Source of the DNA: Candidatus Peribacteria bacterium RIFCSPHIGHO2_01_FULL_55_13
GTDB taxonomy: Bacteria; Patescibacteriota; Gracilibacteria; Peribacterales; Peribacteraceae
Direction: 5' to 3'
NCBI GenBank assembly: GCA_001788925.1
Contig: MFXS01000004.1
Location: 50,464 to 114,463, forward strand
Length of the DNA stretch: 64,000 nt
The position numbers and the translations under genes are program-made. Under the pieces are notes generated by a model, which did no database searches, was not told the origin of the DNA, and was given only the letters and a program-made list of their open reading frames with translations. Shown here one piece after another: positions 1,996 through 58,357 of this stretch. How positions within the stretch are numbered: position 1 is the stretch's first letter; every line of letters starts with the position of its first letter.

Positions 1996-2064
1996 CGATT
2001 TGCCATTGGCCATTTGCGATTTGCCATTGAAAAATGGCAAGTGGTAAATGGCCAATGGCAAATC
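1996..2064. repeat. 7-nt-periodic repeat module, inverted pair (GCGATTT/GCCATTG units)
   Basis: Arms 1996-2028 and 2034-2064 are about 26/31 complementary; exactly fills gap between convergent stop codons at 1995 and 2066. Confidence 0.85.
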
Positions 2065-14920: not shown

Positions 14921-14956
14921 GGAATTGAAAATTGAGAATTGAGAATTGAAAATTAA
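14921..14956. repeat. 7-nt-periodic repeat module, single arm (GAATTGA/AAATTGA x5)
   Basis: Tandem heptamers fill the gap between two minus-strand genes; contains the TAA stop of ORF 14953-15180. Confidence 0.85.
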
Positions 14957-15180
14957 AACTGATACCTCATATCAGTGGAGTCTTTGCTCACATCGACCCA
15001 GTACGTGTCTGTTGGAGGCTTCCCCGAAAAGAGGTAAATCATCTTGAGGATGATCGCGTATATGCTGAACACCACAATCCAAATGATTGTGAGGAGAATC
15101 GTACTCATGATGCGCCCGAGCACATGCGAAAAGCGCATCCAGAGGTCATAGAGCTGTTGCAGTGGTTTCGGAAGTTTCAC
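14953..15180 (-). CDS. SxtJ-like small membrane protein
   Basis: 75 aa, LWMRF...hydrophobic helix...YW...MRYQF terminus as I recall for the SxtJ family; adjacent to carbamoyltransferase. Confidence 0.5.
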   Translation of the reverse strand: MKLPKPLQQLYDLWMRFSHVLGRIMSTILLTIIWIVVFSIYAIILKMIYLFSGKPPTDTYWVDVSKDSTDMRYQF

Positions 15181-15186
15181 AGTGTT

Positions 15187-15254
15187 GGATGGCTAAATGG
15201 CTAAATGGTTAGTCCACATCTATAGCATATAACCATTTAGCCATTTAACCATTC
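15187..15254. repeat. 8-nt-periodic repeat module, inverted pair (ATGGCTAA units)
   Basis: Arms 15187-15212 and 15231-15254 nearly perfectly complementary; fills gap between two minus-strand genes. Confidence 0.85.
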
Positions 15255-15260
15255 AGCTCC

Positions 15261-16132: not shown

Positions 16133-16214
16133 AATTATGAATTAGAAATTAGAAATTAGGAATTAGCAATTATGTCTCTATCTCGCCAATTGCTAATTCC
16201 TAACTGCTAATTGG
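16133..16214. repeat. 7-nt-periodic repeat module, inverted pair (AATTAGA/AATTAGC units)
   Basis: Arms 16133-16171 and 16188-16214; lies in divergent region between M50 protease and rpmB. Confidence 0.85.
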
Positions 16215-17786: not shown

Positions 17787-17855
17787 GAATGCGGAATTCG
17801 GAATTCGGAATTGATTTTTCCTATGATTCCGAATTCCGCATTCCGAATTCCGAAT
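17787..17855. repeat. 7-nt-periodic repeat module, inverted pair (GGAATTC/GGAATGC units)
   Basis: Arms 17787-17812 and 17825-17855; in divergent region between arfB and the TPR membrane protein. Confidence 0.9.
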
Positions 17856-17866
17856 ATACTCCACTC

Positions 17867-19672
17867 ATGCAATTGCATCGTATCCGTTATCTTGCTGTTC
17901 CCGGATTGTTACTGGTCATTGTGTTCCTGGGATTTGGTCATTCTCTTTTCCAGGACTTCGCGCCAATCGATGACACGCTCCTTGTCCGTGAAAACCTCGC
18001 GATCCGTGGGCTCACGCTCGAAAACCTTCGCTATGTCTTCACGCACTTCGATCCAGAGCTCTATATTCCGCTGACATTTGTTTCGTTTCAGATCAATTAC
18101 GTTCTCGGCGGTTTGAGTCCGTTCGGATTCCATCTGGGAAATGTGCTGCTGCATGCGGCGAACACATCGTTGGTCTTTCTCTTTGTTTCACAATTGATGA
18201 ATGCAAAAAGCATAAAGGATAAAGAAAAAAGCCATTTATCCTTTTTGCTTTATCCTTTTTGCTTTCCGGCGGGCATCGCTGCGCTCCTTTTTGCGGTGCA
18301 TCCTCTTCACACGGAGGCAGTCGTCTGGATTGCCGGCCGCAAGGATCTTCTTTTCACCTTCTTCTATCTTCTTACGATTGTAACGTATCTGCGGAGAGGA
18401 AAGTGGTATTGGGTCAGTATTGTTTTCGCTTTGTGCGCGCTTCTCAGCAAAGCGACTGCGATGACACTCCCGGTGATCCTGATTCTTTTGGATTGGGTTT
18501 TGGATGATGAACGCCGGATGTCTATCAAAAACAAAATCCCGTTCTTCCTCCTCTCCATTGTTTTTGCCTTCATCGCCCTTAGCGGCAAAGAGCGCATTGT
18601 CGGCTCCACTTCCATCCTTGATACCGGCCTCGTTGCCATCCGCAGTATTGGTCATTACCTCTGGCAGATCTTCATTCCCGTTGGCTTCAGCGTCTTCTAC
18701 CAGCAGCGTGATCCGATTCTGAATGTGTATTTCGTTGTATCCCTTCTTTTTCTCGCATCCCTTATTGCTCTCACCTGGTATTTCCGCAACAGAAAGCCCT
18801 GGATAGCCTTTGGCGTCTTGTTCTACCTGATCACACTTAGTCCGACGTTCTTCAACTTCCATAAAGGATTGATCTCATTCTACGCAGTGGACCGCTATGC
18901 GTATCTTCCTTCGATTGGAATTATTTTTATTGCAGCAATGGCATGGCGTGATGTGCAGAAAAGAATTTTCCATTTTCCAGCCTTCGCCAAGGCTACGGCC
19001 GGCAGGCAATTTTCAATTTTCAATTCCATTCCTGTTGTGCTCATCGCACTCATTCTATTGTTCGTGTCACGACATCAAACGAAGGTCTGGGACACTCCCG
19101 AATCCCTCTATGCACATTCCGTTTCCGTCGATCTTGCTTCCGTTCCCGCCCGCGCAACTCTCGCCTCCGTTCTCCGCCAGACAGGTCATCCTGTTGAAGC
19201 CTTCAATGTTCTTAAAGAAGGACTCCCGTACGGCGATGATGTGAGTTATCGCCTGGAAGCAGGAAATATCTACGCAAGTAACGGGCAGATAGCGGATGCC
19301 ATCACGGAATTCACCAAAGCTTCACAGATGAAGCCCGATCTTCCTGAACCAATCTTCTCCATCGGCAATCTGGAAGACCAGCGAGGCAATAGTGATCTTG
19401 CATTGGAGTATTACCGCAAGGCCTTGGCACTGGATCCTTCCTATGTTGGGGCCCGCGTGCGCATCGCGGATATCCATATTGACCGGGGAGAACTGGCGGA
19501 AGCAGAGGAGCAGTTGATTCAAGCACTGCGATGGAATGAGAGTTCATTTGGAGCGAATGTGCAGATGTATCGGTTGAGGATGGCACAAGGGAGGGGAGAG
19601 GAGGCGGAAGTGTATTTGGAAAAGGCGAAGGCGTTACGGCCTGGAGAGGCCATCAATTCTTTAGCACCATAA
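17867..19672 (+). CDS. multi-pass membrane protein with C-terminal TPR repeats (TMTC/PMT-like glycosyltransferase candidate)
   Basis: About 11 TM helices followed by TPR-like repeats (YYRKALALDPSY); track start 17789 lies inside the hairpin, so trimmed to ATG 17867. Confidence 0.7.
   Translation: MQLHRIRYLAVPGLLLVIVFLGFGHSLFQDFAPIDDTLLVRENLAIRGLTLENLRYVFTHFDPELYIPLTFVSFQINYVLGGLSPFGFHLGNVLLHAANTSLVFLFVSQLMNAKSIKDKEKSHLSFLLYPFCFPAGIAALLFAVHPLHTEAVVWIAGRKDLLFTFFYLLTIVTYLRRGKWYWVSIVFALCALLSKATAMTLPVILILLDWVLDDERRMSIKNKIPFFLLSIVFAFIALSGKERIVGSTSILDTGLVAIRSIGHYLWQIFIPVGFSVFYQQRDPILNVYFVVSLLFLASLIALTWYFRNRKPWIAFGVLFYLITLSPTFFNFHKGLISFYAVDRYAYLPSIGIIFIAAMAWRDVQKRIFHFPAFAKATAGRQFSIFNSIPVVLIALILLFVSRHQTKVWDTPESLYAHSVSVDLASVPARATLASVLRQTGHPVEAFNVLKEGLPYGDDVSYRLEAGNIYASNGQIADAITEFTKASQMKPDLPEPIFSIGNLEDQRGNSDLALEYYRKALALDPSYVGARVRIADIHIDRGELAEAEEQLIQALRWNESSFGANVQMYRLRMAQGRGEEAEVYLEKAKALRPGEAINSLAP
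18203..18264. repeat. 7-nt-periodic repeat module, full hairpin read in frame (GCAAAAA/GGATAAA units)
   Basis: Arms 18203-18224 and 18236-18262 inside the CDS; encodes NAKSIKDKEKSHLSFLLYPFCFP. Confidence 0.8.
18963..19027. repeat. composite: heptamer arms (ATTTTCC / ATTTTCA) flanking a core related to the 25-nt element
   Basis: Core CCTTCGCCAAGGCTACGGCCGGCAGGC resembles CCCTTCGACAGGCTCAGGACAGGC; in frame (FHFPAFAKATAGRQFSIFNS). Confidence 0.6.
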
Positions 19673-20287: not shown

Positions 20288-20378
20288 GGAGAGATGGCCG
20301 AGTGGTCGAAGGCGCGCGACTCGAAATCGCGTAGGCCCCAAAAGGGTCTCGAGGGTTCGAATCCCTCTCTCTCCGCCA
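20288..20378 (+). tRNA. tRNA-Ser (anticodon CGA), CCA encoded
   Basis: Acceptor GGAGAGA/TCTCTCC, anticodon loop CTCGAAA, long variable arm, T-arm GAGGGTTCGAATCCCTC, GCCA end. Confidence 0.93.
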
Positions 20379-28385: not shown

Positions 28386-30470
28386 CTATGTTTTTACTAC
28401 GACTTTGGCATCCAATACTGAAATCCCTGCATCAGAAACAAGCACGGGATTACAATCAAGTTCTTCTATCTGCGGACATTCGTGAAGCATCTCCGAGACA
28501 GCGACGATTGCTCGTGCCAGCGCATCAATATCACTCCTCGCTTTTCCGCGCATGCCCAGCAGCAGTTTCCAGCTCTTTAATTCCGTAAGCATCCGGTATG
28601 CCTCTTCTTCGTTGATCGGTGCAATCCGGAATACCGTATCTCTGAAGAGTTCCGTATAGATACCGCCGAGCCCTACCATCACCATCGGGCCGAAGGAGGC
28701 ATCCTGAAGACCGCCGATGATGAATTCGTTGCCTGGGGGGAGGTGCTTTTGGATTAAAATTGAGAATGGAGAATTGAGAATTGAGAATTTGGATGCTGTG
28801 ACATTCGCCATGATTTCTTCGCATGCTTTCCGAACGTCCGCTTCATTCTGAAGATTGCCTTTCACGCCTCCGATGTCGGTTTTATGCAGAATCTGCGGTG
28901 AACTGATCTTGGCGATCACCGGAAATCCGATGTCTTTGGCAATCTGCACGGCTTCATCAGCCGACGTCGCGACTTTGGCTTTGGGTTGCGGCAATTGGTA
29001 GAGATCGAAGAGTTCTTTAGAGGTGTCTTCATCCAGTAACCCTGAATGCTTCCCGAGAATCTTCTGGGCCTTCTCTTTCCGTACACGCGCTCCGCGTTTT
29101 TCGGATGCCTCCGCGCCGTTTTTTCGGGGAAGCAGCGTTGCCATCGCATGGACCGCCGCTTCCGGAGTAGGGAAGTGGGGGATGCCGGCCTCCATCAGAA
29201 TTTTTTCTCCTTTTTCCACGCTCGGGCCGCCCATGAAGCAGGCGACAATGGGCATCAGCGACTGGCGTTTATGGAAATCCGCTATCGCGGTGGCGATTTC
29301 TTCGACGGGTGTCATCACCTGAGGGGTCAGAAGCGTCACGACACCATCAATACCCGAGTCATCACCAGTTGCTTCGAGTGCGGAGGAGTAGCGGTCGCAC
29401 AGAGCATCACCGAGAACGTCGATGGGGTTCCCGATGCTTGCGGAAGAGGGGAGTTGGCCTTTCAGGCGATTGCACATTGCAGATTGCAGAGGGGGCAACT
29501 CAAGACCGGCTGCCTCGGTGGCATCTGTCGCAAGGATTCCCGGACCGCCGGCGTTGGTGATCACGGCAATGCGGTTCGTTCGTAATTGTGGCTGCGTGGA
29601 AAGCGTCTGGAGGAGCATCAAAAATTCTTCAGCATTCGCTGCACGATGGATTCCGGCTTGTGCGCATGCGGCATCGATGGCAGCGCTTGATCCGGCAAGC
29701 GCTCCCGTATGCGAAGCAGCTGCTTTACGTCCGGCATCGGAAACGCCGGACTTCAGAAGCACGATTGGTTTTCTTTGACTGATCGTGCCTGCGGTCTTTA
29801 AAAACCGTCGGCCGTCTTTGATGCTTTCAAGATAGAACCCGATCACTTTTGTCTCAGGATCCTCCGCAAGTTCTTCCAAGAAGTCACACTCGTCCATCAG
29901 GGCCTTGTTGCCGATGCTCAAAATCTGCGAGTAGCCGATGCCGAGGCTCAGCGATTGGTCGATCAGCGCCACCGCAAGAGCCCCGGATTGGCTCACCAGC
30001 GCAATCGATCCTGCTTTCGGGAGATCTTTGGCAAAGGAAGCATTCAAGCCAATACTCGGGATCAGGATACCTAAGCAATTTGGGCCGATGATGCGGATTT
30101 TCGATTTACTATTTATGATTTGCGATTGAGCAGCATCGATAATCTGTTGTTCGAGGATTTTTCCTTCATCCGTATGCGTCTCACTGAATCCTGCCGTGAT
30201 GATGACGGCTGTTTGAATACCTTTGGCAACGCATTCTTTCACGATGCCGGGAACCGTGTGCGCCGGCGTCACGATGATTGCGGTATCGACTGCTCCGGGA
30301 ATGTCGCCGATCGTCTTGAACGATTTCTTCCCAAGAATTTCTTCACCTTTCGTATTCACCGCGTACACCTCACCTTTGAATCCTTGCGTCAACAGATTGT
30401 TATAAATCATGTGGCCCACTTTGTGCGGGCTTGCGCTTGCTCCGATGACGGCGATGGATGTTGGGTGCAT
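28386..30470 (-). CDS. acetate--CoA ligase (ADP-forming), fused alpha/beta
   Basis: CoA-binding N-terminus IAVIGASASPHKVGH, succinyl-CoA-synthetase-like and ATP-grasp domains, 694 aa. Confidence 0.9.
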   Translation of the reverse strand: MHPTSIAVIGASASPHKVGHMIYNNLLTQGFKGEVYAVNTKGEEILGKKSFKTIGDIPGAVDTAIIVTPAHTVPGIVKECVAKGIQTAVIITAGFSETHTDEGKILEQQIIDAAQSQIINSKSKIRIIGPNCLGILIPSIGLNASFAKDLPKAGSIALVSQSGALAVALIDQSLSLGIGYSQILSIGNKALMDECDFLEELAEDPETKVIGFYLESIKDGRRFLKTAGTISQRKPIVLLKSGVSDAGRKAAASHTGALAGSSAAIDAACAQAGIHRAANAEEFLMLLQTLSTQPQLRTNRIAVITNAGGPGILATDATEAAGLELPPLQSAMCNRLKGQLPSSASIGNPIDVLGDALCDRYSSALEATGDDSGIDGVVTLLTPQVMTPVEEIATAIADFHKRQSLMPIVACFMGGPSVEKGEKILMEAGIPHFPTPEAAVHAMATLLPRKNGAEASEKRGARVRKEKAQKILGKHSGLLDEDTSKELFDLYQLPQPKAKVATSADEAVQIAKDIGFPVIAKISSPQILHKTDIGGVKGNLQNEADVRKACEEIMANVTASKFSILNSPFSILIQKHLPPGNEFIIGGLQDASFGPMVMVGLGGIYTELFRDTVFRIAPINEEEAYRMLTELKSWKLLLGMRGKARSDIDALARAIVAVSEMLHECPQIEELDCNPVLVSDAGISVLDAKVVVKT
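28751..28792. repeat. 7-nt-periodic repeat module in CDS (AAATTGA/GAATTGA units)
   Basis: Read on minus strand as KFSILNSPFSILIQ. Confidence 0.85.
30093..30130. repeat. 7-nt-periodic repeat module in CDS (xxxGATT units)
   Basis: Read as [10 protein letters not shown]; 30102-30127 matches 63234-63259 at 25 of 26 nt. Confidence 0.85.
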
Positions 30471-31535: not shown

Positions 31536-32021
31536 ATGCTATTGCGCTACAATGCGCAGGTGTCATCACTCCAGATTATTTACGCCAGTACCAGCGGGCA
31601 TACCGAGTACGTTGTCGGCGTCCTGACAGAGGTTTTAAAAGGAGCGTTGCAGGTTGCAACGTGCAATGCCGAGGCTGCAACGCCGGAGGATCTTTTGAAA
31701 GGAGATAACCTTATTCTTGCCTGCGGCACCTGGAATACCGATGGGCCTGAGGGGCAGCTCAATCCGCATATGAAAGATCTTCTGGTTGGCAGGGCCAAGG
31801 ACATTGATCTTGCCGGGAAGCAGGTTGCCATTATCGCGCTTGGTGATGACCGTTATTACTATACCTGCAGGTCGGGGGAGCACATGCGCAGGTTCGTGCT
31901 CGATCACGGCGGAAAGATCCTCGGAGATGCATTGCTTGTGGTGAATGAGCCGTACGGTCAGGAGGAGAGAGTGAAGAAGTGGGCGGAAGCTCTTCATCAA
32001 AAATTAGCAATTAGGAATTAG
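31536..32021 (+). CDS. flavodoxin
   Basis: IIYASTSGHTEYV FMN-phosphate loop and LACGTWNTDG; track start trimmed to 31536. Confidence 0.8.
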   Translation: MLLRYNAQVSSLQIIYASTSGHTEYVVGVLTEVLKGALQVATCNAEAATPEDLLKGDNLILACGTWNTDGPEGQLNPHMKDLLVGRAKDIDLAGKQVAIIALGDDRYYYTCRSGEHMRRFVLDHGGKILGDALLVVNEPYGQEERVKKWAEALHQKLAIRN

Positions 32022-32035
32022 CAATTAGCAATTTT
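31999..32035. repeat. 7-nt-periodic repeat module (AATTAGC/AATTAGG units), left arm flanking korA
   Basis: Supplies the last codons and TAG stop of flavodoxin; ends at the korA ATG; inverted partner at 33801-33836. Confidence 0.85.
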
Positions 32036-33826
32036 ATGCGAATTTCACTCAAAGTTACCGGCGCGCAAGGTCAAGGAGTCAACTCCATAGGAGAGATGTG
32101 TGCAAAGGGTCTCAAGCGTGCGGGGTACTGCGTGTTTGGATACAAAGAATATATGTCCCTCATCAAAGGCGGACACAGCAGTTATCAGCTTGATGTCGCA
32201 TCCGAAGCCATCGAGAGCAGCGAGACAACGGTGGATATGCTCGTGTGTTTCAATCACCACGGACTCGAGCGTAATGCACTAGAGGTGAAGAGCTGCGGGA
32301 TCATCCTGCACCAGACGCCGCAGTGGAAATACACCAAAGAACAGCAGAAGGTGCTCGAGGATCGTGGCATCCGGACGGTATATCTCCCTTCAGAGGACAT
32401 CCTGAAAAAGCTCAAGGCGAAGCCGATCTTAGGCAACGTGCTCGTCACATCTGTCGTCTGGGCATTGCTTGGGCGCAAGGCTGAAGAACTGAAGGAGCTT
32501 GTGCAGGAACAGTTCGGGCATAAAGGGGAGAAGGTGGTAGCGATGAACTTCCAGTGCATCGAAGAAGGGTTCGCATTCTTGGGAGAGGAAAGTGGAAAGT
32601 GGAAAGTGGAAAGTGGGCTGCGGTTACCCAAGTCTGATCCTTCATGGAAAGATCATCTGCTGATTACCGGAAGCGAGGCGATGGGACTCGGGCTCATCCA
32701 CGCAGGATGCCGTCTGTACTGCGGATATCCGATGACGCCGAGTTCGCCGCTGCTGAGTTACATCGCGGGGATGCAGAACAAGACCGGGATGATCATCAAG
32801 CAGGCGGAAGATGAGATCACGGCCGCGCAGATGATGAGCGGGGCGATGCACATGGGCACACGCGCAGCGACGGGCACCTCGGGCGGGGGATTCGACCTCA
32901 TGACCGAGACGCTTTCACTCGATGCCATCATCGAAAATCCTTCCGTCTTCATTCTCGCACAGCGCCCTGGGCCAGCAACGGGCCTTCCTACATGGACCGC
33001 GCAGGGTGATCTTCTTCTGGCCGTGGGTTCGTCGCACGGGGAATTCGCGCGCTGCGTGATTTCCGTGGCCGATGCACAGGATTGCTACGACCTGATGCCC
33101 GAAGCATTTAACATTGCCGAGAAATATCAGACTCCGGTGATTGTGATGACGGATAAGCAGATCGCAGAAGCGTTATTCACGCAGAAACCGTACGATCAGA
33201 AGAAGGCGAAGCTTGATCGGGGAAATCTGGTGACCGATCCGAAGGCCTTAAAGAAGCTCAAGAGCACGGACCGCTACGATCCGAATGCTAAGGATGGCAT
33301 CTCCCCGCGATGGCTTCCCGGAAGCCTTGCTGCGACCTACTGTGCGCAGGGTGACGAGCATAACGGCGATGGTTCTGTAGATGAAAGCGCGAAGAATGCG
33401 GTGGAGCAGATAGAGAAGAGGATGAAGAAGATGAAAGCGATGGAGCGGGAGACGCCAGAGCCTGTACTGACGGTAATGAGCAATGAGAAATTAGCAGTTA
33501 GCAATGAAGAGCCGGCATTGGATCTTCTTGTGGTGAGCTGGGGGAGTAATAAGGGGGTGATCATGGATGCTTTGAAGGTTGCGGGTTCCGGGTTACGGGT
33601 TGGGTATCTCCATTACACATACCTCTGGCCGATGAAGACAGAGAGGCTGAGCAAGTTGATGAAAAAGTCGAAAAAGACCGTGCTTGTGGAGTGCAACTAT
33701 GGAGGACAACTTGGCATGTTGATTCAGATGGCCGGAGGCCCCACGATCAAAGAAAAGATTTTGAAATATGACGGCAGGCCGTTCTTCGTCGATGAGCTCC
33801 AAAAATTGCTCATTGCTAACTCCTAA
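32036..33826 (+). CDS. 2-oxoacid:ferredoxin oxidoreductase, fused gamma-alpha subunit
   Basis: 596 aa; GAQGQGVNS gamma-domain N-terminus then the alpha domain (GYPMTPSSPLL). Confidence 0.9.
   Translation: MRISLKVTGAQGQGVNSIGEMCAKGLKRAGYCVFGYKEYMSLIKGGHSSYQLDVASEAIESSETTVDMLVCFNHHGLERNALEVKSCGIILHQTPQWKYTKEQQKVLEDRGIRTVYLPSEDILKKLKAKPILGNVLVTSVVWALLGRKAEELKELVQEQFGHKGEKVVAMNFQCIEEGFAFLGEESGKWKVESGLRLPKSDPSWKDHLLITGSEAMGLGLIHAGCRLYCGYPMTPSSPLLSYIAGMQNKTGMIIKQAEDEITAAQMMSGAMHMGTRAATGTSGGGFDLMTETLSLDAIIENPSVFILAQRPGPATGLPTWTAQGDLLLAVGSSHGEFARCVISVADAQDCYDLMPEAFNIAEKYQTPVIVMTDKQIAEALFTQKPYDQKKAKLDRGNLVTDPKALKKLKSTDRYDPNAKDGISPRWLPGSLAATYCAQGDEHNGDGSVDESAKNAVEQIEKRMKKMKAMERETPEPVLTVMSNEKLAVSNEEPALDLLVVSWGSNKGVIMDALKVAGSGLRVGYLHYTYLWPMKTERLSKLMKKSKKTVLVECNYGGQLGMLIQMAGGPTIKEKILKYDGRPFFVDELQKLLIANS
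32585..32617. repeat. 7-nt-periodic repeat module in CDS (GGAAAGT x4)
   Basis: Read as EESGKWKVESG at the gamma/alpha domain junction. Confidence 0.9.
33473..33509. repeat. 7-nt-periodic repeat module in CDS (GCAATGA/GAAATTA/GCAGTTA units)
   Basis: Read as VMSNEKLAVSNEE; same family as the arms flanking the gene. Confidence 0.7.
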
Positions 33827-33836
33827 TTGCTAATTT
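33801..33836. repeat. 7-nt-periodic repeat module, right arm flanking korA (inverted copy of 31999-32035)
   Basis: Reverse complement differs from the left arm at 2 positions; supplies the korA C-terminus QKLLIANS and the TAA. Confidence 0.85.
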
Positions 33837-35212: not shown

Positions 35213-35905
35213 ATGCGGATAGATATCATCACGCTTTTTCCGGCGATGTTCCAAGGTCCTCTAACCGAGAGCATCCTAAAACGTGCCCAGGATGAAGAAA
35301 AACTGGAGATTGTCTTTCATGACCTTCGCCAGTTCGGCCTTGGGAAATATCATCAGGTGGATGACAGCCCGTATGGCGGCGGCGCCGGAATGTTGATGAG
35401 AGCAGATGTAATTGTTCCGGCGTTAGAGAAGATCGCCGAAAGAAAAATGCATAAAGGAAAAAGCAAAAAGCCGTACACGATCTATTTTTCTCCGAGAGGG
35501 AAGAAGTTAAAGCAGGCGAAGGTGGAGAAGCTGGCGAAGAAAGAATGGCTGATCCTACTTTGCGGACATTACGAAGGCATTGATCAGCGTGTCATCGACG
35601 GTGGCTGGTTCGACGGGGCTCACCATAAATGGATCGATGAAGAGATTTCGATCGGGGATTATGTGCTGACCGGCGGCGAGCTTCCAGCAATGGTCCTGAT
35701 CGACGCTGTGGCGCGGCAGATTCCGGGGGTGCTCGGGAAAGAGGCTTCAGTACACGAAGAGAGCTTTTCGGCTTCCCTCGGCCGTAAAAAGGAATATCCG
35801 CATTTCACGCGCCCGGAGGAATTTAGGGGGCTCAAGGTGCCCGATATTCTGCTTTCCGGGCATCACGGGGAGATAGAGAAGTGGAGGAAGGAAAACGTGA
35901 AGTAA
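35213..35905 (+). CDS. trmD: tRNA (guanine37-N1)-methyltransferase
   Basis: MRIDIITLFPAMFQGPL, GHYEGIDQRV and IGDYVLTGGELPAMVLIDAV motifs. Confidence 0.93.
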   Translation: MRIDIITLFPAMFQGPLTESILKRAQDEEKLEIVFHDLRQFGLGKYHQVDDSPYGGGAGMLMRADVIVPALEKIAERKMHKGKSKKPYTIYFSPRGKKLKQAKVEKLAKKEWLILLCGHYEGIDQRVIDGGWFDGAHHKWIDEEISIGDYVLTGGELPAMVLIDAVARQIPGVLGKEASVHEESFSASLGRKKEYPHFTRPEEFRGLKVPDILLSGHHGEIEKWRKENVK

Positions 35906-35935
35906 TTGAAAATTGAAAATGTAAAATTGAAAATT
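35904..35935. repeat. 7-nt-periodic repeat module (AATTGAA units), single arm
   Basis: Runs from the trmD stop to the next ATG; 35904-35933 is identical to 43600-43629 (30/30 nt). Confidence 0.9.
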
Positions 35936-36211
35936 ATGGAAGTTGCTCTCTCAACATTGCAGGCTCAGTTGAGGGAAGCAGGGGAGCTGACCTTCAACGT
36001 GCGTGTTCATCCAGGAGCCCGAAAGACGCAGATCAAAAGCGTGATGGCGGATGGCACGATCAAGATCGACGTTGCTGCTGTACCGGAGGAGGGAAGAGCG
36101 AATGCGGCGCTCGTAAAATTTCTTGCGGAGGAGTTTGGTGTTGCGAAAGGGAATGTGGAGATTGTGGCGGGGGAGACGGGTAGGAAGAAGGTGGTGCGGA
36201 TTGTCGCATAA
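35936..36211 (+). CDS. DUF167 (YggU) family protein
   Basis: VRVHPGARKTQI...EGRANAALVKFLAEEFGV...VEIVAGETGRKKVV. Confidence 0.8.
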   Translation: MEVALSTLQAQLREAGELTFNVRVHPGARKTQIKSVMADGTIKIDVAAVPEEGRANAALVKFLAEEFGVAKGNVEIVAGETGRKKVVRIVA

Positions 36212-37477: not shown

Positions 37478-37539
37478 ATGCATAAAGCAAAAAGGATAAT
37501 GCAAAAATATTTTTGCTTTTTGCTTTATGCTTTATGCAT
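37478..37539. repeat. 7-nt-periodic repeat module, near-perfect palindrome (GCATAAA/GCAAAAA/GGATAAT units)
   Basis: In the divergent region, ending 6 nt before the wecG-like ATG. Confidence 0.9.
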
Positions 37540-37545
37540 TTCCCC

Positions 37546-38280
37546 ATGGCTTCACGCATTCCCATTCTCGGCGTTCCCATTGATCCCGTCACGATGGAGG
37601 AGGCGGTTACGTGCGTTCTGTCGATGCTCCATGGGTTGAAGCAGTGCCATGTGATGACACCGAACAACGAGATGCTCGTGGAGGCAGACCGCAATGCCGC
37701 TTTTAAAAGCGTCCTTCAGAGGAGCGATCTCAATCTCCCGGACAGCACCGGGCTTCTGTGGGCGGCTCGTAGAACAGGGGAGAGGATTCCAGAGCGTGTG
37801 AGCGGGGTGGATTTTGTGGAGAGACTGTGTGGGGCGTTGGATCAGAGTATTCCGGTGTTTTTTTTGGGGGGGAGGGGTGGAGCAGCGGAGAAAGCGGCGG
37901 AGAAATTCGGAATGCGGAATTCAGAATTCGGAATTGCAGGAGTATTTGAAGGATCTCCGAAAGATATGGATGCAGATCAGATCATCCAGGCAGTGAATAC
38001 TTCCGGTGCCAAGCTGCTACTGGTGGCTTACGGTGCGCCGAAGCAGGATCTCTGGATCGCGAAACATCTTTCGAAGATGCCTACGGTGCGTGTCGCGATC
38101 GGCGTCGGTGGTACATTCGATTTTCTGTCAGGAACGATCAAACGGGCGCCACGATGGTTGCGGTCACTGGGACTCGAGTGGTTGTGGAGACTGATCCTTC
38201 AGCCGTGGCGTATCAAAAGAATCTGGACGGCCGTCGTTATATTTCCGATGCTCGTCCTCATGTCAAAAAAGCAGAACTGA
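37546..38280 (+). CDS. WecB/TagA/CpsF family glycosyltransferase
   Basis: ILGVPIDPVTMEEAV, TPNNEML and LGLEWLWRLILQPWR motifs. Confidence 0.85.
   Translation: MASRIPILGVPIDPVTMEEAVTCVLSMLHGLKQCHVMTPNNEMLVEADRNAAFKSVLQRSDLNLPDSTGLLWAARRTGERIPERVSGVDFVERLCGALDQSIPVFFLGGRGGAAEKAAEKFGMRNSEFGIAGVFEGSPKDMDADQIIQAVNTSGAKLLLVAYGAPKQDLWIAKHLSKMPTVRVAIGVGGTFDFLSGTIKRAPRWLRSLGLEWLWRLILQPWRIKRIWTAVVIFPMLVLMSKKQN
37902..37937. repeat. 7-nt-periodic repeat module in CDS (GGAATGC/GGAATTC units)
   Basis: Read as KFGMRNSEFGIAG; same peptide as the guaA insert. Confidence 0.85.
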
Positions 38281-40979: not shown

Positions 40980-42332
<1,353 letters not shown>

Positions 42333-42356: not shown

Positions 42357-43793
42357 ATGCTTCAACGTATCCGCGAGGGGCTTACCTTGGTACTCATTGC
42401 AGTGCTGCCCTTTCATGCGTTTCTCGTTACCGTCGGGACAAAGCTCATCGCGGGGTCAGGGCAATCACCGTTGCCCGTGTTGGCGCTTTGGAAAGAGGCA
42501 GTCCTTGGGATGATTTTGCTTGTTGCTTTGGTGGAGATCTTTCGAGAGTGGAAAACGGAAAGTGGAAAGTGGAAAGTTGATGTTTTCGACATTCTGATCG
42601 TTGGGTTAATTGCCTGGTCGATCATTTTGTATTTCGTTTTCCACTTTCCACTTTCCACTTTCCACTTCGCATTCGGGTTTAAGTATGACTTCCTCCCGCT
42701 CGTTGCATTCCTGATCCTGCGGCGGGTGCCTTGGTCACCGTGGTTCATCAGCACGGCAGTAGCCGTGCTGCTAAGCGTGGGTGCGGTCGTCGCGGTCTAT
42801 GGAATCGCTGCGATATTCCTGCCGATGTCGTGGTTCACGGCGTTGGGATATTCCGATCTTCATTCCTTGTATGTCCCCGGGGGGCCGCTTGCACCGTTCC
42901 AGCAGATTGAATCGATCGGCATCAGAAGAATGCAGTCGGTAATGAGTGGGCCGAATCAGATGGGGCTGTGGCTTTTGATTCCCTGGAGCATTGCGTTCGT
43001 TGATCTTGTTCGCAGGCGGTCGTTTGCTGGTTTGCTGGTTTGCTCGTTGCTCGTTGTAGGCATTCTCCTCTCTTTCTCAAGATCCGCCTGGATCGCGGCA
43101 GCCGTCATCGGCGCAGTCGTTGCATGGAAGCATTTGTCTCGCAAACAGATGGTCATGGCTGCCTCTTTCTTGATCGTTCTTGCCGTTATTGCCGTTGCTG
43201 CATTTCCAAGCATTGTTTTACGTGCCACATCTACCACCGGTCATATTGATCGGCCTCTTCAGGCGTTGCAGATCATGAAAGAACATCCGCTGGGTCTGGG
43301 TCTTGGTTCTGCCGGCCCGGCAAGTAATCGCTTCAGCGATGCCTGTGTGGATCTTCCCGCAGGCAGCGACGCTTCATGGGCGCAGGCGCATTCGCAGCTG
43401 TGTGTGTTTGTCGGCGGCAATCAAGTCCAGCCTCCGCTCCCTTCCGGGGAGCTACGGCCGGCAGGCCAACCTGCGGATCGTACGTGCTCCTGTCCGCTTC
43501 TACCCGAAAATTGGTATCTGCAGATCGGTGTGGAGTTGGGGTGGATAGGTTTTATCCTGTATGTGACGTTGGTGCTGATGCTTTTGAAACGCTTGACGGA
43601 ATTGAAAATTGAAAATGTAAAATTGAAAAAAGAAGAATTTTCAATTTTCAATTTTCAATTTTCAATTGGTCTCGCATTCCTCGGCATCAGTATCGCCGCC
43701 CTCTTCCTGCATGCATGGGAAGACAGCGCGGTGGCGTATACGGTGTGGATTCTTATGGCAATGGGGCTTTTACTGAGAAGGAGGATCCATTGA
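42357..43793 (+). CDS. O-antigen ligase (Wzy_C)-like membrane protein
   Basis: About 11 TM helices, LLSFSRSAW loop motif, 478 aa. Confidence 0.75.
   Translation: MLQRIREGLTLVLIAVLPFHAFLVTVGTKLIAGSGQSPLPVLALWKEAVLGMILLVALVEIFREWKTESGKWKVDVFDILIVGLIAWSIILYFVFHFPLSTFHFAFGFKYDFLPLVAFLILRRVPWSPWFISTAVAVLLSVGAVVAVYGIAAIFLPMSWFTALGYSDLHSLYVPGGPLAPFQQIESIGIRRMQSVMSGPNQMGLWLLIPWSIAFVDLVRRRSFAGLLVCSLLVVGILLSFSRSAWIAAAVIGAVVAWKHLSRKQMVMAASFLIVLAVIAVAAFPSIVLRATSTTGHIDRPLQALQIMKEHPLGLGLGSAGPASNRFSDACVDLPAGSDASWAQAHSQLCVFVGGNQVQPPLPSGELRPAGQPADRTCSCPLLPENWYLQIGVELGWIGFILYVTLVLMLLKRLTELKIENVKLKKEEFSIFNFQFSIGLAFLGISIAALFLHAWEDSAVAYTVWILMAMGLLLRRRIH
42546..42670. repeat. inverted GGAAAGT arrays separated by 57 nt, all in frame
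   Basis: Arms 42546-42579 (EWKTESGKWKVD) and 42637-42670 (FHFPLSTFHFA) bracket a predicted TM helix. Confidence 0.85.
43598..43669. repeat. 7-nt-periodic repeat module, complete hairpin in frame (AATTGAA / TTTTCAA units)
   Basis: Read as ELKIENVKLKKEEFSIFNFQFSIG. Confidence 0.9.
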
Positions 43794-44282
43794 GGTCAGA
43801 AGATGCTCATCACCATTTCCAGCAGCCATGATCGTGGATTTCCGCTCCCCAACATCCGAAGGGTCATTCAGCCACTCTGTAACATCGTCTCCGGTAAACT
43901 GTTCATTCGGAGGATACACCTGCTTCATGCCTGTTACGGAACCAGGCGCCTTCTGATGTGCTGTGGAAAGAACGACAATTGCCTCATTGTGTATTTTGCG
44001 GACAGCAAGAGTGAGCTGGGTGAGATTGTTCAAGCTCTGCGTGAGCTTTTCATCTCCATCAACGATGACAGACGAAATCTCGCCTTCTTTTCGTACGTGT
44101 ATTCGCTTGTCTCTTTGCAATAAGTTATTTGTTTGTAACCCCGTATACAGCCCTGGATTTTTTGTTTCGGGGAGGACAATATCGCCATTTTGAACTTCTG
44201 CATGCAATTCCATAAGTACAGTATGTTCTCGCTGCGGCACCCTTTTGTCAATTCCCTCTGGAAAGGGGTAGGCTTTGCCCAT
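43770..44282 (-). CDS. hypothetical protein (AT-richer orphan); start uncertain
   Basis: 170-aa ORF filling the 487-nt gap; its ATG overlaps the guaA ATG (CCATGG); M24 (44213) is an alternative start. Confidence 0.4.
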   Translation of the reverse strand: MGKAYPFPEGIDKRVPQREHTVLMELHAEVQNGDIVLPETKNPGLYTGLQTNNLLQRDKRIHVRKEGEISSVIVDGDEKLTQSLNNLTQLTLAVRKIHNEAIVVLSTAHQKAPGSVTGMKQVYPPNEQFTGDDVTEWLNDPSDVGERKSTIMAAGNGDEHLLTSMDPPSQ

Positions 44283-46107
44283 GGAAGGTTCCGTTCATCC
44301 AAAGTCCATCGCTATTCTCGATTTCGGAGGCCAGTATGCGCACCTGATCGCCAGCCGCATCCGGCGTTTTGGGTATCCCTCCTATATCTACCCGTGTGAC
44401 ATCGATCCCACAGAATTAAGGGGAGTTGCTGGCATCATTCTCTCTGGTGGGCCACAGAGCGTGTACGACAAGGGGAGTCCGCAGGCGGATCCGAAGATTT
44501 TTGATCTTGGTATTCCGGTTCTGGGACTTTGCTACGGGCATCAGTGGCTGGCGCATGCGCTTGGCGGCCGAGTGGCTGCTGCGAAGGTTAAGGAATATGG
44601 ATCTACGCTGGTGAAGCGAGCGGAAAAAGAAAAAAGCAAAAAGGAAAATGATTTGTTTGAAGGATTTCCGGAGCAGTGGACGGTCTGGATGTCGCATGGC
44701 GACGAAGTGAGTGAGCTTCCGCCGGGATTTATCCGCACTGCAAGTACGAAAGATTGCATCAACGCGGCGATGGTGAATCCGGAGAGAAACATTTTCGGCA
44801 TCCAGTGGCATAACGAGGTGACGCACACGGAGCATGGCATGGAAATCCTCCGGAGGTTTGCGGAATTCTGTAAGCCTGCGCAGTGGTCGATTAAAAGTTA
44901 TGCCGATCATGTGGGTGCGCAGATCAAAGAAGAGGTGGGTGGCAAGAAAGTCTTTATGCTGGTCTCCGGAGGGGTGGATTCCACGGTCGCGTTCACGCTT
45001 CTGAACAAGGTCCTTGGCGCAGATCGTGTACAGGGGCTCCTCGTCGATACGGGATTGATGCGCAAAGGAGAGGTGAAGATGATTGAAGAAGCGTTTGCAA
45101 AGCTCAAGATCAAAAATCTGCACATCGAAGATGCATCAGAGGAATTTTTTGCGAATCTGAAAGGCGTTTATGGACCGGAAGAGAAGAGGAAGATCATTGG
45201 GAATACATTTTTAGAGGTGCAGAAGAGGGTGTTTGAAGAAATGCGGAATTCGGAATTCGGAATTCGGAATGAGGTGTGCTTGTTGGGTCAAGGGACCATT
45301 TATCCAGACACGATTGAAACCGGAGGGACCAAGCACGCGGACAAGATCAAGACGCATCACAACCGTGTGGAGGCGATCCAGAAAATGATTGAGCAGGGAC
45401 TCGTGATCGAGCCGCTCAAGGAACTCTATAAAGATGAAGTGCGTATTCTGGGCGAAGAACTGGGATTGCCGCATGCACTCGTATGGCGGCATCCATTTCC
45501 GGGGCCGGGACTTGGCGTTCGAATTCTTTGTGCGAAGAATTCGAACGAATTGAAAATTGAAAATGGAAAATTGAAAATTGAGTTCCAACACACGGTGTTG
45601 CCCGTGCAATCGGTGGGTGTGCAAGGTGACGGAAGAACCTATCGGCATGCGATCGTTGTTTTCGGTAAAGATCCCTCGAAGATTACTACGGAGCATCTGG
45701 AGCTTGCGACGCAGGTGCCTAACAGTAATCGCGAAATCAATCGTGTGCTTCTTTGCACGTCTCAATCTGAGCGCACAGAATTTTCGGTGACGCCGGGGGC
45801 GATCACCCGCGAGCGCGCAGACCTTCTCCGTGAAGCAGATGACATCGTCCTTCAGGAAATGCGAAACGCAGGTCTCTATGAAAAAATCTGGCAGTTCCCA
45901 GTCGTGTTACTTCCTCTCGGGAAGGGGAAAGGACAGTCGATTGTCCTTCGCCCTATCTCTTCCACCGACGCGATGACAGCGAATGCATTTGTATTGCCTC
46001 CCGAAGTCATCCAAACGATCACCAAAAAGATCATGCAATTGCCGGGCATCGATGCGGTTTTCTATGACCTCACCAATAAGCCGCCGGCGACTATAGAGTG
46101 GGAGTAG
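44281..46107 (+). CDS. guaA: GMP synthase (glutamine-hydrolysing), long form
   Basis: ILDFGGQYAHLIASRIR, LGLCYGHQ, SGGVDSTV and GQGTIYPD motifs. Confidence 0.93.
   Translation: MEGSVHPKSIAILDFGGQYAHLIASRIRRFGYPSYIYPCDIDPTELRGVAGIILSGGPQSVYDKGSPQADPKIFDLGIPVLGLCYGHQWLAHALGGRVAAAKVKEYGSTLVKRAEKEKSKKENDLFEGFPEQWTVWMSHGDEVSELPPGFIRTASTKDCINAAMVNPERNIFGIQWHNEVTHTEHGMEILRRFAEFCKPAQWSIKSYADHVGAQIKEEVGGKKVFMLVSGGVDSTVAFTLLNKVLGADRVQGLLVDTGLMRKGEVKMIEEAFAKLKIKNLHIEDASEEFFANLKGVYGPEEKRKIIGNTFLEVQKRVFEEMRNSEFGIRNEVCLLGQGTIYPDTIETGGTKHADKIKTHHNRVEAIQKMIEQGLVIEPLKELYKDEVRILGEELGLPHALVWRHPFPGPGLGVRILCAKNSNELKIENGKLKIEFQHTVLPVQSVGVQGDGRTYRHAIVVFGKDPSKITTEHLELATQVPNSNREINRVLLCTSQSERTEFSVTPGAITRERADLLREADDIVLQEMRNAGLYEKIWQFPVVLLPLGKGKGQSIVLRPISSTDAMTANAFVLPPEVIQTITKKIMQLPGIDAVFYDLTNKPPATIEWE
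44620..44650. repeat. 7-nt-periodic A-rich repeat module in CDS
   Basis: Read as RAEKEKSKKEN in the GATase domain. Confidence 0.6.
45241..45273. repeat. 7-nt-periodic repeat module in CDS (GGAATTC x3 plus variants)
   Basis: Read as MRNSEFGIRNE just upstream of the conserved GQGTIYPD. Confidence 0.9.
45537..45582. repeat. 7-nt-periodic repeat module in CDS (AATTGAA units, third unit AAATGGA)
   Basis: Read as NSNELKIENGKLKIE. Confidence 0.9.
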
Positions 46108-52488: not shown

Positions 52489-52557
52489 TTCGGAATGAGG
52501 AATGCGGAATGCGGAATTGCTGCAACATCATAATTCCGAATTCCGAATTCCGCATTC
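52488..52557. repeat. 7-nt-periodic repeat module, inverted pair (GGAATGA/GGAATGC / GAATTCC units)
   Basis: Exactly fills the gap between the dnaQ-like stop (52558) and the def start (52488). Confidence 0.9.
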
Positions 52558-58322: not shown

Positions 58323-58357
58323 AAAAAGGAAAAATGAAAAAGGATAAAGGAAAAATT
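58323..58357. repeat. 7-nt-periodic repeat module (GGAAAAA/TGAAAAA/GGATAAA units) abutting the glnA start
   Basis: Inverted partner at 58560-58599. Confidence 0.85.

Follow-up and report, generated by a model that had tools for sequence, protein, structure and literature searches.

Among the long simple sequence repeats (LSSRs) of prokaryotes, heptanucleotide repeats are over-represented (Mrazek et al., 2007, as recounted in PMC4679880 and PMC4692102). This excess has been known since 2007, is unexplained and has been treated as an intergenic curiosity. Here, we describe a class of heptanucleotide tandem repeats in a 64,000-nt stretch of DNA (the window; contig MFXS01000004.1) from a Rifle aquifer groundwater population of Candidatus Peribacteria (Peregrinibacteria, candidate phyla radiation, CPR). 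An earlier note on the window had singled out a 30-nt segment, present identically in the spacer between trmD and a DUF167 gene and inside an O-antigen-ligase-like (Wzy-like) gene, as a discrete and recently copied module. The 30-mer is a member of the AATTGAA subfamily of this repeat class, and the pattern seen across Peribacteria holds more interest than the two copies themselves, which probably go back to copying between loci.

Like the LSSRs, the Peribacteria arrays are built of head-to-tail 7-nt units, with a strong period-7 excess and heterogeneous unit variants. The predominantly intergenic location expected of non-triplet LSSRs was not found in the window, where about 26 of 38 arrays lie inside long open reading frames (ORFs); the arrays also differ from LSSRs in reaching ~32–40 nt at most and in the coexistence of many units at 0.5 arrays per kb. 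Arrays of the short tandemly repeated repetitive (STRR) type are found in cyanobacteria and may reach a far greater length, and we know of no description of them with in-frame residence in housekeeping genes or a 32-nt mode. In Calothrix PCC 7601, STRR sequences likewise comprise several heptamer units, tandem and dispersed genome-wide (cited in PMC4692102). The GGGAATC repeats of Xanthomonas and the GGGGAYT repeats of Nostoc (Rehm et al., 2015; PMC4692102) are similar in that they differ in length and sequence among related species at the same intergenic sites, and those of Xanthomonas also form mostly four-unit arrays, some as inverted pairs on opposite strands. However, these repeats are described as intergenic, G-rich and G-quadruplex forming, whereas the Peribacteria units are A/T-rich (AATKNNN) and about two-thirds of the arrays lie in frame in conserved genes.

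Three further systems share some traits with the arrays. The TAACTGA repeats of marine Beggiatoaceae, cyanobacteria and Bacteroidetes occur in 2–6 copies a few nt upstream of starts, in regions without canonical ribosome-binding sites (MacGregor, 2015; PMC4679880). A comparable placement was seen for the window arrays at 35904, 32002, 58323 and 16133, which end 0, 2, 1 and 5 nt from a start codon, respectively. The TAACTGA system differs in its one dominant unit, with related heptamers seldom repeated, in its mostly intergenic location and in that no conserved in-gene hairpin pairs are described; moreover, neither Tandem Repeats Finder nor a lag scan found a TAACTGA array in the window. Rickettsia palindromic elements (RPEs; Ogata et al., 2000), as recounted in PMC10969869, are likewise repeated palindromic DNA residing in frame in unrelated housekeeping genes of a small genome and translated as extra peptide at fold-compatible positions. 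RPEs have ~100–150 bp, a conserved family-specific sequence and an encoded conserved peptide, whereas the Peribacteria hairpins have 60–120 nt, consist of heptamers only and change units between genomes, and single arrays, unlike RPEs, are not palindromic. Related complete Peribacteria genomes measure ~1.25 Mb, and the source genome is probably small. Finally, repetitive extragenic palindromic (REP) sequences and their hairpin-forming doublets (REPINs; PMC3116915) are also short (~20–40 nt), highly abundant and often arranged as inverted hairpin pairs in spacers. REPs, however, are extragenic, carry a sequence that is conserved within the family and occur together with a REP-associated tyrosine transposase (RAYT). 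The window arrays share AAT[T/G] only, and no RAYT gene was found in the window, of which 10 ORFs were scanned with Pfam and no RAYT-directed genome-wide search was made. A text search of a collection of papers found no mention of AATTGAA arrays in bacteria, and heptamer repeats are not mentioned in the Peribacteria genome paper (PMC4736985). What appears to be new is the high density, the A/T-rich AATK core, the cap at ~32 nt and, above all, that the arrays regularly sit in frame within housekeeping genes, at sites that are conserved while the units turn over.

An exact search placed the 30-mer AATTGAAAATTGAAAATGTAAAATTGAAAA at 35904–35933 and 43600–43629, both on the plus strand, which agreed with the claimed 30/30 identity and showed that neither locus had been mistranscribed. 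In 100 dinucleotide-preserving shuffles, no match was obtained even at three mismatches. The 30-mer is not confined to two lone sites: besides the wider array family, a one-mismatch relative in which GG replaces GT lies inside guaA (45548–45577, plus strand), and a two-mismatch relative on the minus strand (43638–43667) lies 8 nt from the 43600 copy as its inverted partner. As previously described, the first copy sits between the trmD stop and the DUF167 start, with Pfam support for both genes. The final two A's of the trmD stop TAA (35903–35905) double as the first array bases, and the DUF167 ATG at 35936 directly follows the array, which is in frame and stop-free between the two genes. The second copy is translated as ELKIENVKLK in the Wzy-like ORF, whose assignment was supported by Pfam. 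It forms a single arm of a 28-bp hairpin, a feature that the first reading overlooked. As a single strand, the spacer array folded into no structure, and it is most likely merely an unstructured A/U-rich 30-nt linker from stop to start codon. The match between the two copies ends precisely at the borders of the array, with unrelated sequence on either side. The spacer locus was unchanged in six independent assembly loci, the exact Wzy-like protein was encoded on 14 contigs, and both loci were identical across independent ENA, NCBI, JGI and Logan assemblies, ruling out an assembly artefact.

Tandem Repeats Finder reported ~45 period-7 rows in the window, nearly all with 4.3–4.9 copies and both copies of the 30-mer among them. 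A lag scan detected 31 period-7 arrays compared with 0–3 for each other period from 3 to 13, and perfect lag-7 runs of at least 9 numbered 26 compared with 0–2 at other lags. The window thus holds ~31–38 arrays (~0.5 per kb, i.e. one every ~2 kb), and this family, with its many units, replaces the discrete 30-nt module that had been proposed. The typical array is (AAT[T/G]NNN)x4 + AATT, 32 nt in length, with a maximum of 40 nt; its units include AATTGAA, AATTCGG, AATGGAA, GGAAAGT, AAAGGAA, AATTAGC and AATGGCA, among others, and no shared consensus beyond AAT[T/G] was found among the arrays. Identical units nevertheless recurred at 30 pairs of window loci, against 1.8 expected. Arrays within long ORFs are read in frame, and several of these ORFs contain conserved domains confirmed by Pfam, which was run on 10 window ORFs; the array-bearing genes are guaA, wecB, wecG, trmD, POR alpha, an ADP-forming acetyl-CoA synthetase-like gene and the Wzy-like gene. 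The remaining arrays exactly fill spacers, lying 0–5 nt before starts or bridging stop-to-start or stop-to-stop gaps (33805, 52492–52557 and 1998–2063).

The unit length of 7 is coprime to the codon length of 3; translation of a heptamer array therefore runs through all three phases in turn and yields one and the same periodic peptide of 7 residues, whichever frame is used. By this sequence logic every cyclic trinucleotide of a unit becomes a codon, and a pure AATTGAA array carries an in-frame TGA every seventh codon, with one or two units hit in a 32-nt array. In the Wzy and guaA copies, this TGA would fall in unit 3, precisely where GT or GG replaces TG. Similarly, the 33475 array alternates AATGAGC and AATTAGC such that TGA and TAG stay out of frame throughout, and by the same logic T or G at unit position 4 tracks the reading frame, avoiding TGA or TAG; the units AATGGAA, AATTCGG and GGAAAGT are stop-free in all six frames. 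The spacer copy bears the same TGA-avoiding variant with GT in unit 3 (AATGTAA), as the earlier note had seen. GT lies two substitutions from the pure unit, and the need to remove TGA applies to the coding Wzy copy only. Among 170 sampled metagenome AATTGAA arrays, the unit-3 bases were TG in 156, GG in 7 and GT in 1. Since a functional gene cannot pass through an in-frame stop, a coding AATTGAA array must have been stop-free from birth, which would favour copying of already fixed arrays over unit-by-unit growth.

The syntenic loci of six related Peribacteria (L127, L129, L130, L252, L253 and L254) were collected via GuaA homologs, and the window was aligned with L127 over 22 kb using MAFFT with fast settings. 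L127 shares ~70% nucleotide identity with the window across ~20 kb. Its trmD–DUF167 spacer, GTGAAGTAAATTGAAAGTTTTATGG, comprises 12 nt with a single AATTGAA unit (TAAATTGAAAGTTTTATG) and no array, indicating that the spacer array of the window is lineage-specific and that a seed unit existed at the site. Presence/absence variation, which had been suggested as a check among strains, was therefore seen against this sister genome, whereas the six assemblies were alike. In contrast to the spacer, the Wzy hairpin site carries heptamer arrays in all genomes examined, with AATTGAA/TTCAATT in the window, the window-like AATTGAA/AATGGAA and their complement in L254, AATGAAG/CTTCATT in L127, TTGCAAC/GTTGCAA in L130 and a lone GGTTATG array in L252 and L253; despite the change of unit, the arms remain complementary in the window, L127, L130 and L254. 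Orthologous arrays hold their position and AAT register, and their variable bases shift in all units jointly (for example CGG to AAG in wecG), a pattern that is best described from these alignments as concerted evolution. Furthermore, AATGAAG is common to five arrays at different loci of L127, where the window has four different units, which points to homogenisation between loci within a genome. The period-7 excess was also detected in L127, L129, L130, L252 and L254, and was weak in L253 (2 arrays vs. 1 at period 6).

Gains of arrays were visible in the same comparison. The wecG array replaces an equal-length non-array segment found in L252, L253 and L254, array gain in wecB and at guaA site 1 adds 5–7 codons, and the net length changes relative to orthologs were 0, +12, +15, +18 and +21 nt. 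At guaA site 1, three genomes have three unrelated units and three have no array. The site-3 array of guaA is 31/31 identical in L129 and 31/32 in L252, with GuaA identities of 81% and 67%, respectively, while the flanks diverged. L253, whose GuaA is 87% identical to that of L252, has no array in this loop, which resembles that of more distant lineages; relative to L253, a ~12-residue loop (QAFDPDADLDLAIP) in L252 (11232–11263) is swapped for an AATTGAA array (KELKIENGELKINGIE), with a net gain of 2 residues. The L252 array therefore looks like an independent gain, and near-identical arrays would have been acquired in parallel. Judged by alignment, the array in some lineage-specific gains (wecG; guaA of L252) overwrites a loop of roughly equal length. 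As near-identical guaA-loop arrays seem to have originated in parallel in distant lineages, identity between copies does not prove recency; the lack of polymorphism in six assemblies likewise gives no support for recent copying.

We consider it probable that the trmD–DUF167 spacer received its array by copying from a stop-free array of the coding type, with the AATTGAA unit already present there as the primer and with template switching or non-allelic conversion as the route. Inter-locus exchange is indicated because the rare GT is shared, the spacer array is absent in L127, units recur within the window and AATGAAG occupies five L127 loci. In this mechanism, arrays would be born and renewed through replication slippage and microhomology-primed template switching (non-allelic conversion) among arrays, and fold-back switching would generate the inverted pairs. 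Within coding sequences (CDSs), selection would act as a filter, such that the arrays that survive have no stop codon in the frame in which they lie and their length changes are multiples of 3. The donor of the spacer array would be the Wzy copy 7.7 kb away or an identical array elsewhere in the genome, and the GT, needless in the spacer, would have been carried along. Several observations weigh against this explanation. Template switching is argued from indirect evidence and not from junction reads or intermediates; the six independent assemblies show no length polymorphism, so any slippage would be slow; the L129 and L252 guaA-loop arrays show that identity can reflect persistence or parallel origin, without copying between the compared loci; and simple slippage would not predict the sharp length mode at 32 nt that is found here as well as in unrelated contigs from metagenomes. 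In addition, nucleotide conservation of an array exceeding that of its flanks could reflect a sequence-specific function rather than neutral turnover, and the analysis covered 64 kb of the genome, beyond which the true donor copy may lie.

The earlier argument that identity reflects copying and not independent drift thus stands in part, through the shared GT, the array-free L127 spacer and the unit recurrence, and is weakened in that near-identical arrays also seem to arise in parallel. The main rival, independent slippage in situ from local AATTGAA seeds, with GT arising twice (e.g. by a selected TGA to GGA change followed by a neutral GGA to GTA change), is rather unlikely. The lone seed in the L127 spacer, the apparently independent gain of a near-identical guaA-loop array in L252 and a GT-type unit (AATGTAG) in the L127 guaA array all speak for it, as does the finding that 30–34-nt AATTGAA arrays are common in very many unrelated organisms, which makes the unit a recurrent attractor. 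However, without selection against TGA a pure array would be expected in the spacer, GT requires two substitutions and was seen in 1 of the 170 sampled arrays, stepwise growth in a functional gene would traverse in-frame stops, and the within-genome recurrence of units and the dominant AATGAAG of L127 would be left unexplained. A speculative proposal, which we also doubt as a whole, treats the arrays as a hitherto unrecognised, cross-phylum class of "quantised" 32-nt modules, (AATTNNN)4AATT, written by an active templated process and not by passive slippage. The writing activity would be polymerase-intrinsic or a dedicated enzyme that overwrites loops and spacers with frame-neutral sequence, and nucleotide identity across species would stem from sequence-specific function or recopying from master copies; if true, much of the loop evolution in essential proteins of Peribacteria would come from this process.

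We regard it as improbable that the arrays are selected cis-elements, acting as start-proximal A/U-rich standby or protein-binding sites (S1-, CsrA- or Csp-like) with the pairs as terminators or mRNA/DNA hairpins, and equally improbable that a shared binding specificity explains the identity of the copies. Such a role would fit the several arrays that end 0–5 nt from start codons, as the Beggiatoaceae TAACTGA repeats do (PMC4679880), the hairpins that fill convergent-gene spacers (one in L129 being terminator-like), the arms that stay complementary through a change of unit, the guaA array that is better conserved than its flanks, the 32-nt mode across phyla and the absence of a Shine–Dalgarno motif from most window genes. 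Conversely, the wide variation of units among arrays and orthologous sites argues against a ligand with sequence specificity, the arrays have no consistent orientation with respect to transcription, two-thirds of them are found in CDS loops where a regulatory role is not obvious, and arrays are gained and lost between close relatives and have no Rfam match. An origin of the arrays, chiefly the inverted pairs, as miniature elements similar to MITEs (transposable elements of miniature size with inverted repeats), RPEs or REPINs, inserted in frame by a trans-acting transposase, is very unlikely. Although presence/absence differences between relatives (L127, L130, L252–254), the palindromic structure of the inverted pairs, AT-rich arrays in GC-rich contigs and an in-frame residence in housekeeping genes that recalls the RPEs as described in PMC10969869 would agree with it, the listing of array flanks contained no conserved flanks, terminal motifs or target-site duplications, the length changes of 0 to +21 nt suggest overwriting and not insertion of a fixed unit, and the units are too diverse for recognition by a single transposase. 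No transposase turned up in the window, where the Pfam scan of 10 ORFs was made and no search was aimed at transposases. Little credence is also given to a coding spacer, in which DUF167 would start at TTG 35906 and gain an N-terminal LKIENVKLKI, with the predicted peptide (M/L)KIENVKLKIMEV, such that GT would be needed in both copies. The ORF 35906–36211 is open from this TTG, the array shares the frame of the genes on both sides, and its sole in-frame stop is taken away by GT; yet an in-frame position has a probability of 1/3 anyway, ATG 35936 is the start in four of five public gene calls and a site further downstream in the fifth, with none at TTG 35906, and the ATG with its Met-Glu start aligns with L127, where the spacer has just 12 nt.

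Phase variation was considered and rejected: no indel differences occurred among the six assemblies, the arrays lie in housekeeping genes, and the Wzy-like protein was exact on 14 contigs. Accordingly, no repeat-number differences were observed in six arrays across the six independent assemblies, which are consensus assemblies and not reads.

Table 1. Arrays, inverted pairs and associated genes in the window; z, folding z-score.
Feature	Position	Strand	Unit and remarks
trmD (tRNA m1G37 methyltransferase)	35213–35905	+	Pfam PF01746, 1.8e-55
Degenerate A-rich array within trmD	35453–35471	+	L127 and L252 have an orthologous array of differing unit
Spacer array	35904–35935	+	AATTGAA AATTGAA AATGTAA AATTGAA AATT, 32 nt; occupies entire trmD–DUF167 spacer
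DUF167/YggU-family gene	35936–36211	+	Pfam PF02594, 1.8e-25; ATG start kept in L127
Wzy_C/O-antigen-ligase-like membrane protein	42357–43793	+	Pfam PF04932; four arrays forming two hairpins
Inverted pair in Wzy-like CDS	43600–43667	+	Arm 1 43600–43629; loop aagaagaa; arm 2 (AATTTTC)x4 AATT 43636–43667
Second inverted pair in Wzy-like CDS	42550–42667	+	(GGAAAGT)n, 60-nt spacer, (TTTCCAC)n; -60.3 kcal/mol, z = -8.5
guaA (GMP synthase)	44275–46107	+	In-frame arrays 44624–44648, 45240–45270, 45548–45581
guaA site-3 array	45548–45581	+	AATTGAA with GG in unit 3; peptide NELKIENGKLKIE
wecB-like UDP-GlcNAc 2-epimerase	40980–42332	+	Arrays 41440–41473 (AATGGAA x4.9, EWKMENGKWKMD) and 41703–41733 (AAAGGAA)
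wecG array	37904–37935	+	AATTCGG, KFGMRNSEFGIA
POR alpha-like region array	32002–32033	+	AATTAGC x4 + AATT, 2 nt before ATG
POR alpha-like region array	32587–32616	+	GGAAAGT
POR alpha-like region arrays	33475–33503, 33577–33601	+	
POR alpha-like region array	33805–33835	+	Covers stop and next start
Array	14923–14958	+	AATTGAA/AATTGAG; 18 nt upstream of minus-strand carbamoyltransferase gene start
Array	16133–16172	+	AATTAGA/AATTAGG, 40 nt, longest in window; 5 nt upstream of minus-strand gene start
Array	28758–28789	+	AATTGAG, 32 nt; within minus-strand ADP-forming acetyl-CoA synthetase-like gene
Array	58323–58355	+	AAAAAGG; 1 nt upstream of minus-strand gene start
Inverted pair	1998–2063	+	(ATTTGCC)n/(AAATGGC)n; fills convergent-gene spacer; -53.4 kcal/mol, z = -12.3
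Inverted pair	17787–17855	+	(GAATTCG)n/(ATTCCGA)n; z = -7.2
Inverted pair	18203–18265	+	(GCATAAA-like)n/(TTTATCC/CTTTTTG)n; inside ORF 17789–19672; z = -4.8
Inverted pair	37478–37537	+	(GCATAAA/GCAAAAA)n/(TTTTTGC/TTTATGC)n, divergent genes; z = -7.1; absent in L127
Inverted pair	52492–52557	+	(GGAATGC)n/(AATTCCG)n; fills spacer of two minus-strand genes; z = -5.5

Arrays stand alone or in inverted pairs, and paired arrays form 25–30-bp hairpins (Table 1). The window contains at least eight such pairs, whose long hairpins have folding z-scores of -4.8 to -12.3. The pair containing the second copy of the 30-mer (-32.2 kcal/mol, z = -6.1) encodes the peptide ELKIENVKLKKEEFSIFNFQFSI. It did not have the features of an intrinsic terminator, as its stem is A/T-rich, it lies inside a CDS and GGTCTC follows in place of a T-run. 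The other pair in the same gene has counterparts at both array positions in L127 and at the second position in L130. Variant units of the 1998–2063 pair are mirrored between both arms, and the ORF around the 18203–18265 pair matches TPR repeats in its C-terminal part. Intergenic pairs between convergent genes (1998–2063 and L129 7126–7176) could serve as predicted terminators. The L129 pair is a perfect (AATTGAG)x3.5/(AATTCTC)x3.5 hairpin between the convergent genes efp and gatB, with an A-run before and a T-rich run after it, and by these features looks like a putative bidirectional intrinsic terminator. Separately, an inverted pair of period 8, (ATGGCTAA)n/(CCATTTAG)n, was found at 15189–15257, with a hairpin z-score of -6.3 as DNA; its build is like that of the heptamer pairs, with an 8-nt unit.

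In-frame arrays encode peptides such as MRNSEFGIRNE in guaA and EWKMENGKWKMD and AKAKRKKEKGKN in wecB. In an AlphaFold2 model of the window GuaA (mean predicted local distance difference test [pLDDT] score 78.7), the array segments 116–128, 321–333 and 424–436 are lower-confidence coil, consistent with predicted surface loops that tolerate the arrays. The peptides LKIENGKLKIE and WKMENGKWKM resemble designed hairpins with NG turns; the model gave no support for array peptides as autonomous beta-hairpins, since GuaA showed just coil at a pLDDT of ~65. The arrays suggest a route by which non-triplet repeats make new protein loop sequence. Moreover, comparative genomics in Peribacteria offers a test of how heptamer repeats originate, as array gains, losses and unit switches can be placed on a tree of complete genomes. 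For annotation, short identical "modules" in such genomes are to be taken as members of repeat families and not as proof of specific gene-to-gene transfer. Compared with all solved GMP synthases, GuaA also contains a ~90-residue insertion (residues 419–507; window 45529–45795) that lies between the ATP-pyrophosphatase region and the dimerisation region; it is kept across Peribacteria homologs of ~600 aa and holds a second VLPVxSVGVQGDGRTYRHA-like motif. Where the window has an AATTCGG array, the GuaA of L129, the closest homolog, has a different 16-residue insertion, KEPNTQEPKKGSNTQDQKSQ, which looks internally repetitive.

The distribution beyond Peribacteria was assessed using a pattern scan for AATTNNN x4 AATT, with one genome per species. 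Among the matches listed, true heptamer arrays occurred in Cyanobacteria, Bacteroidota, Ignavibacteria, Acidobacteriota, Planctomycetota, Chloroflexota and CPR lineages. A metagenome scan with the 30-mer returned many unrelated organisms among the matches listed, and the AATTGAA array was present in contigs of many biomes, with a contig GC content from 24% to 68% among the matches listed. The metagenome AATTGAA arrays (n = 124) measured 30–36 nt in 85% of cases, with a mode of 32. A phage origin was set aside, with only 10 IMG/VR contigs carrying the AATTGAA array. In GC-rich metagenome contigs, the array is often arranged as inverted pairs. In contigs of 62–68% GC (L138, L156, L165, L167, L222, L228 and L240), pure AATTGAA inverted pairs flank a short GC-rich segment, and these AT-rich heptamer hairpins contrast sharply with the composition of their hosts. 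In seven other contigs, probably from Bacteroidota (L139, L152, L154, L170, L190, L196 and L197), the AATTGAA array directly adjoins GCAAAG(G/A)TA(C/T)A, a sequence whose reverse complement matches TAnnTTTG, the -7 promoter box of Bacteroides. The array in these contigs would therefore lie just upstream of a promoter on the opposite strand.

An Rfam covariance-model scan of the window returned no match to the arrays. The single match at the gathering score was a tRNA gene of the long-variable-arm type (20288–20375, 88 nt). A Shine–Dalgarno-like tetramer (AGGA, GGAG, GAGG or AAGG, 6–22 nt upstream) preceded 17 of 72 greedily called ORF starts, which are unverified, and translation initiation in this organism seems, from these sequences, to be largely independent of such motifs. 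A role of the arrays as replacements for the Shine–Dalgarno motif was rejected, given that leaders lacking it are not unusual among window genes, most of which are without the motif. GC skew flips sign near 31–32 kb, being negative leftward and positive rightward, gene orientation flips around the same place, and the 30–32 kb bin is AT-rich (GC 0.478); a replication origin may lie in the segment 30000–32100. The strand on which the arrays are purine-rich does not change together with this sign, and a replication-strand bias of the arrays was accordingly discarded.

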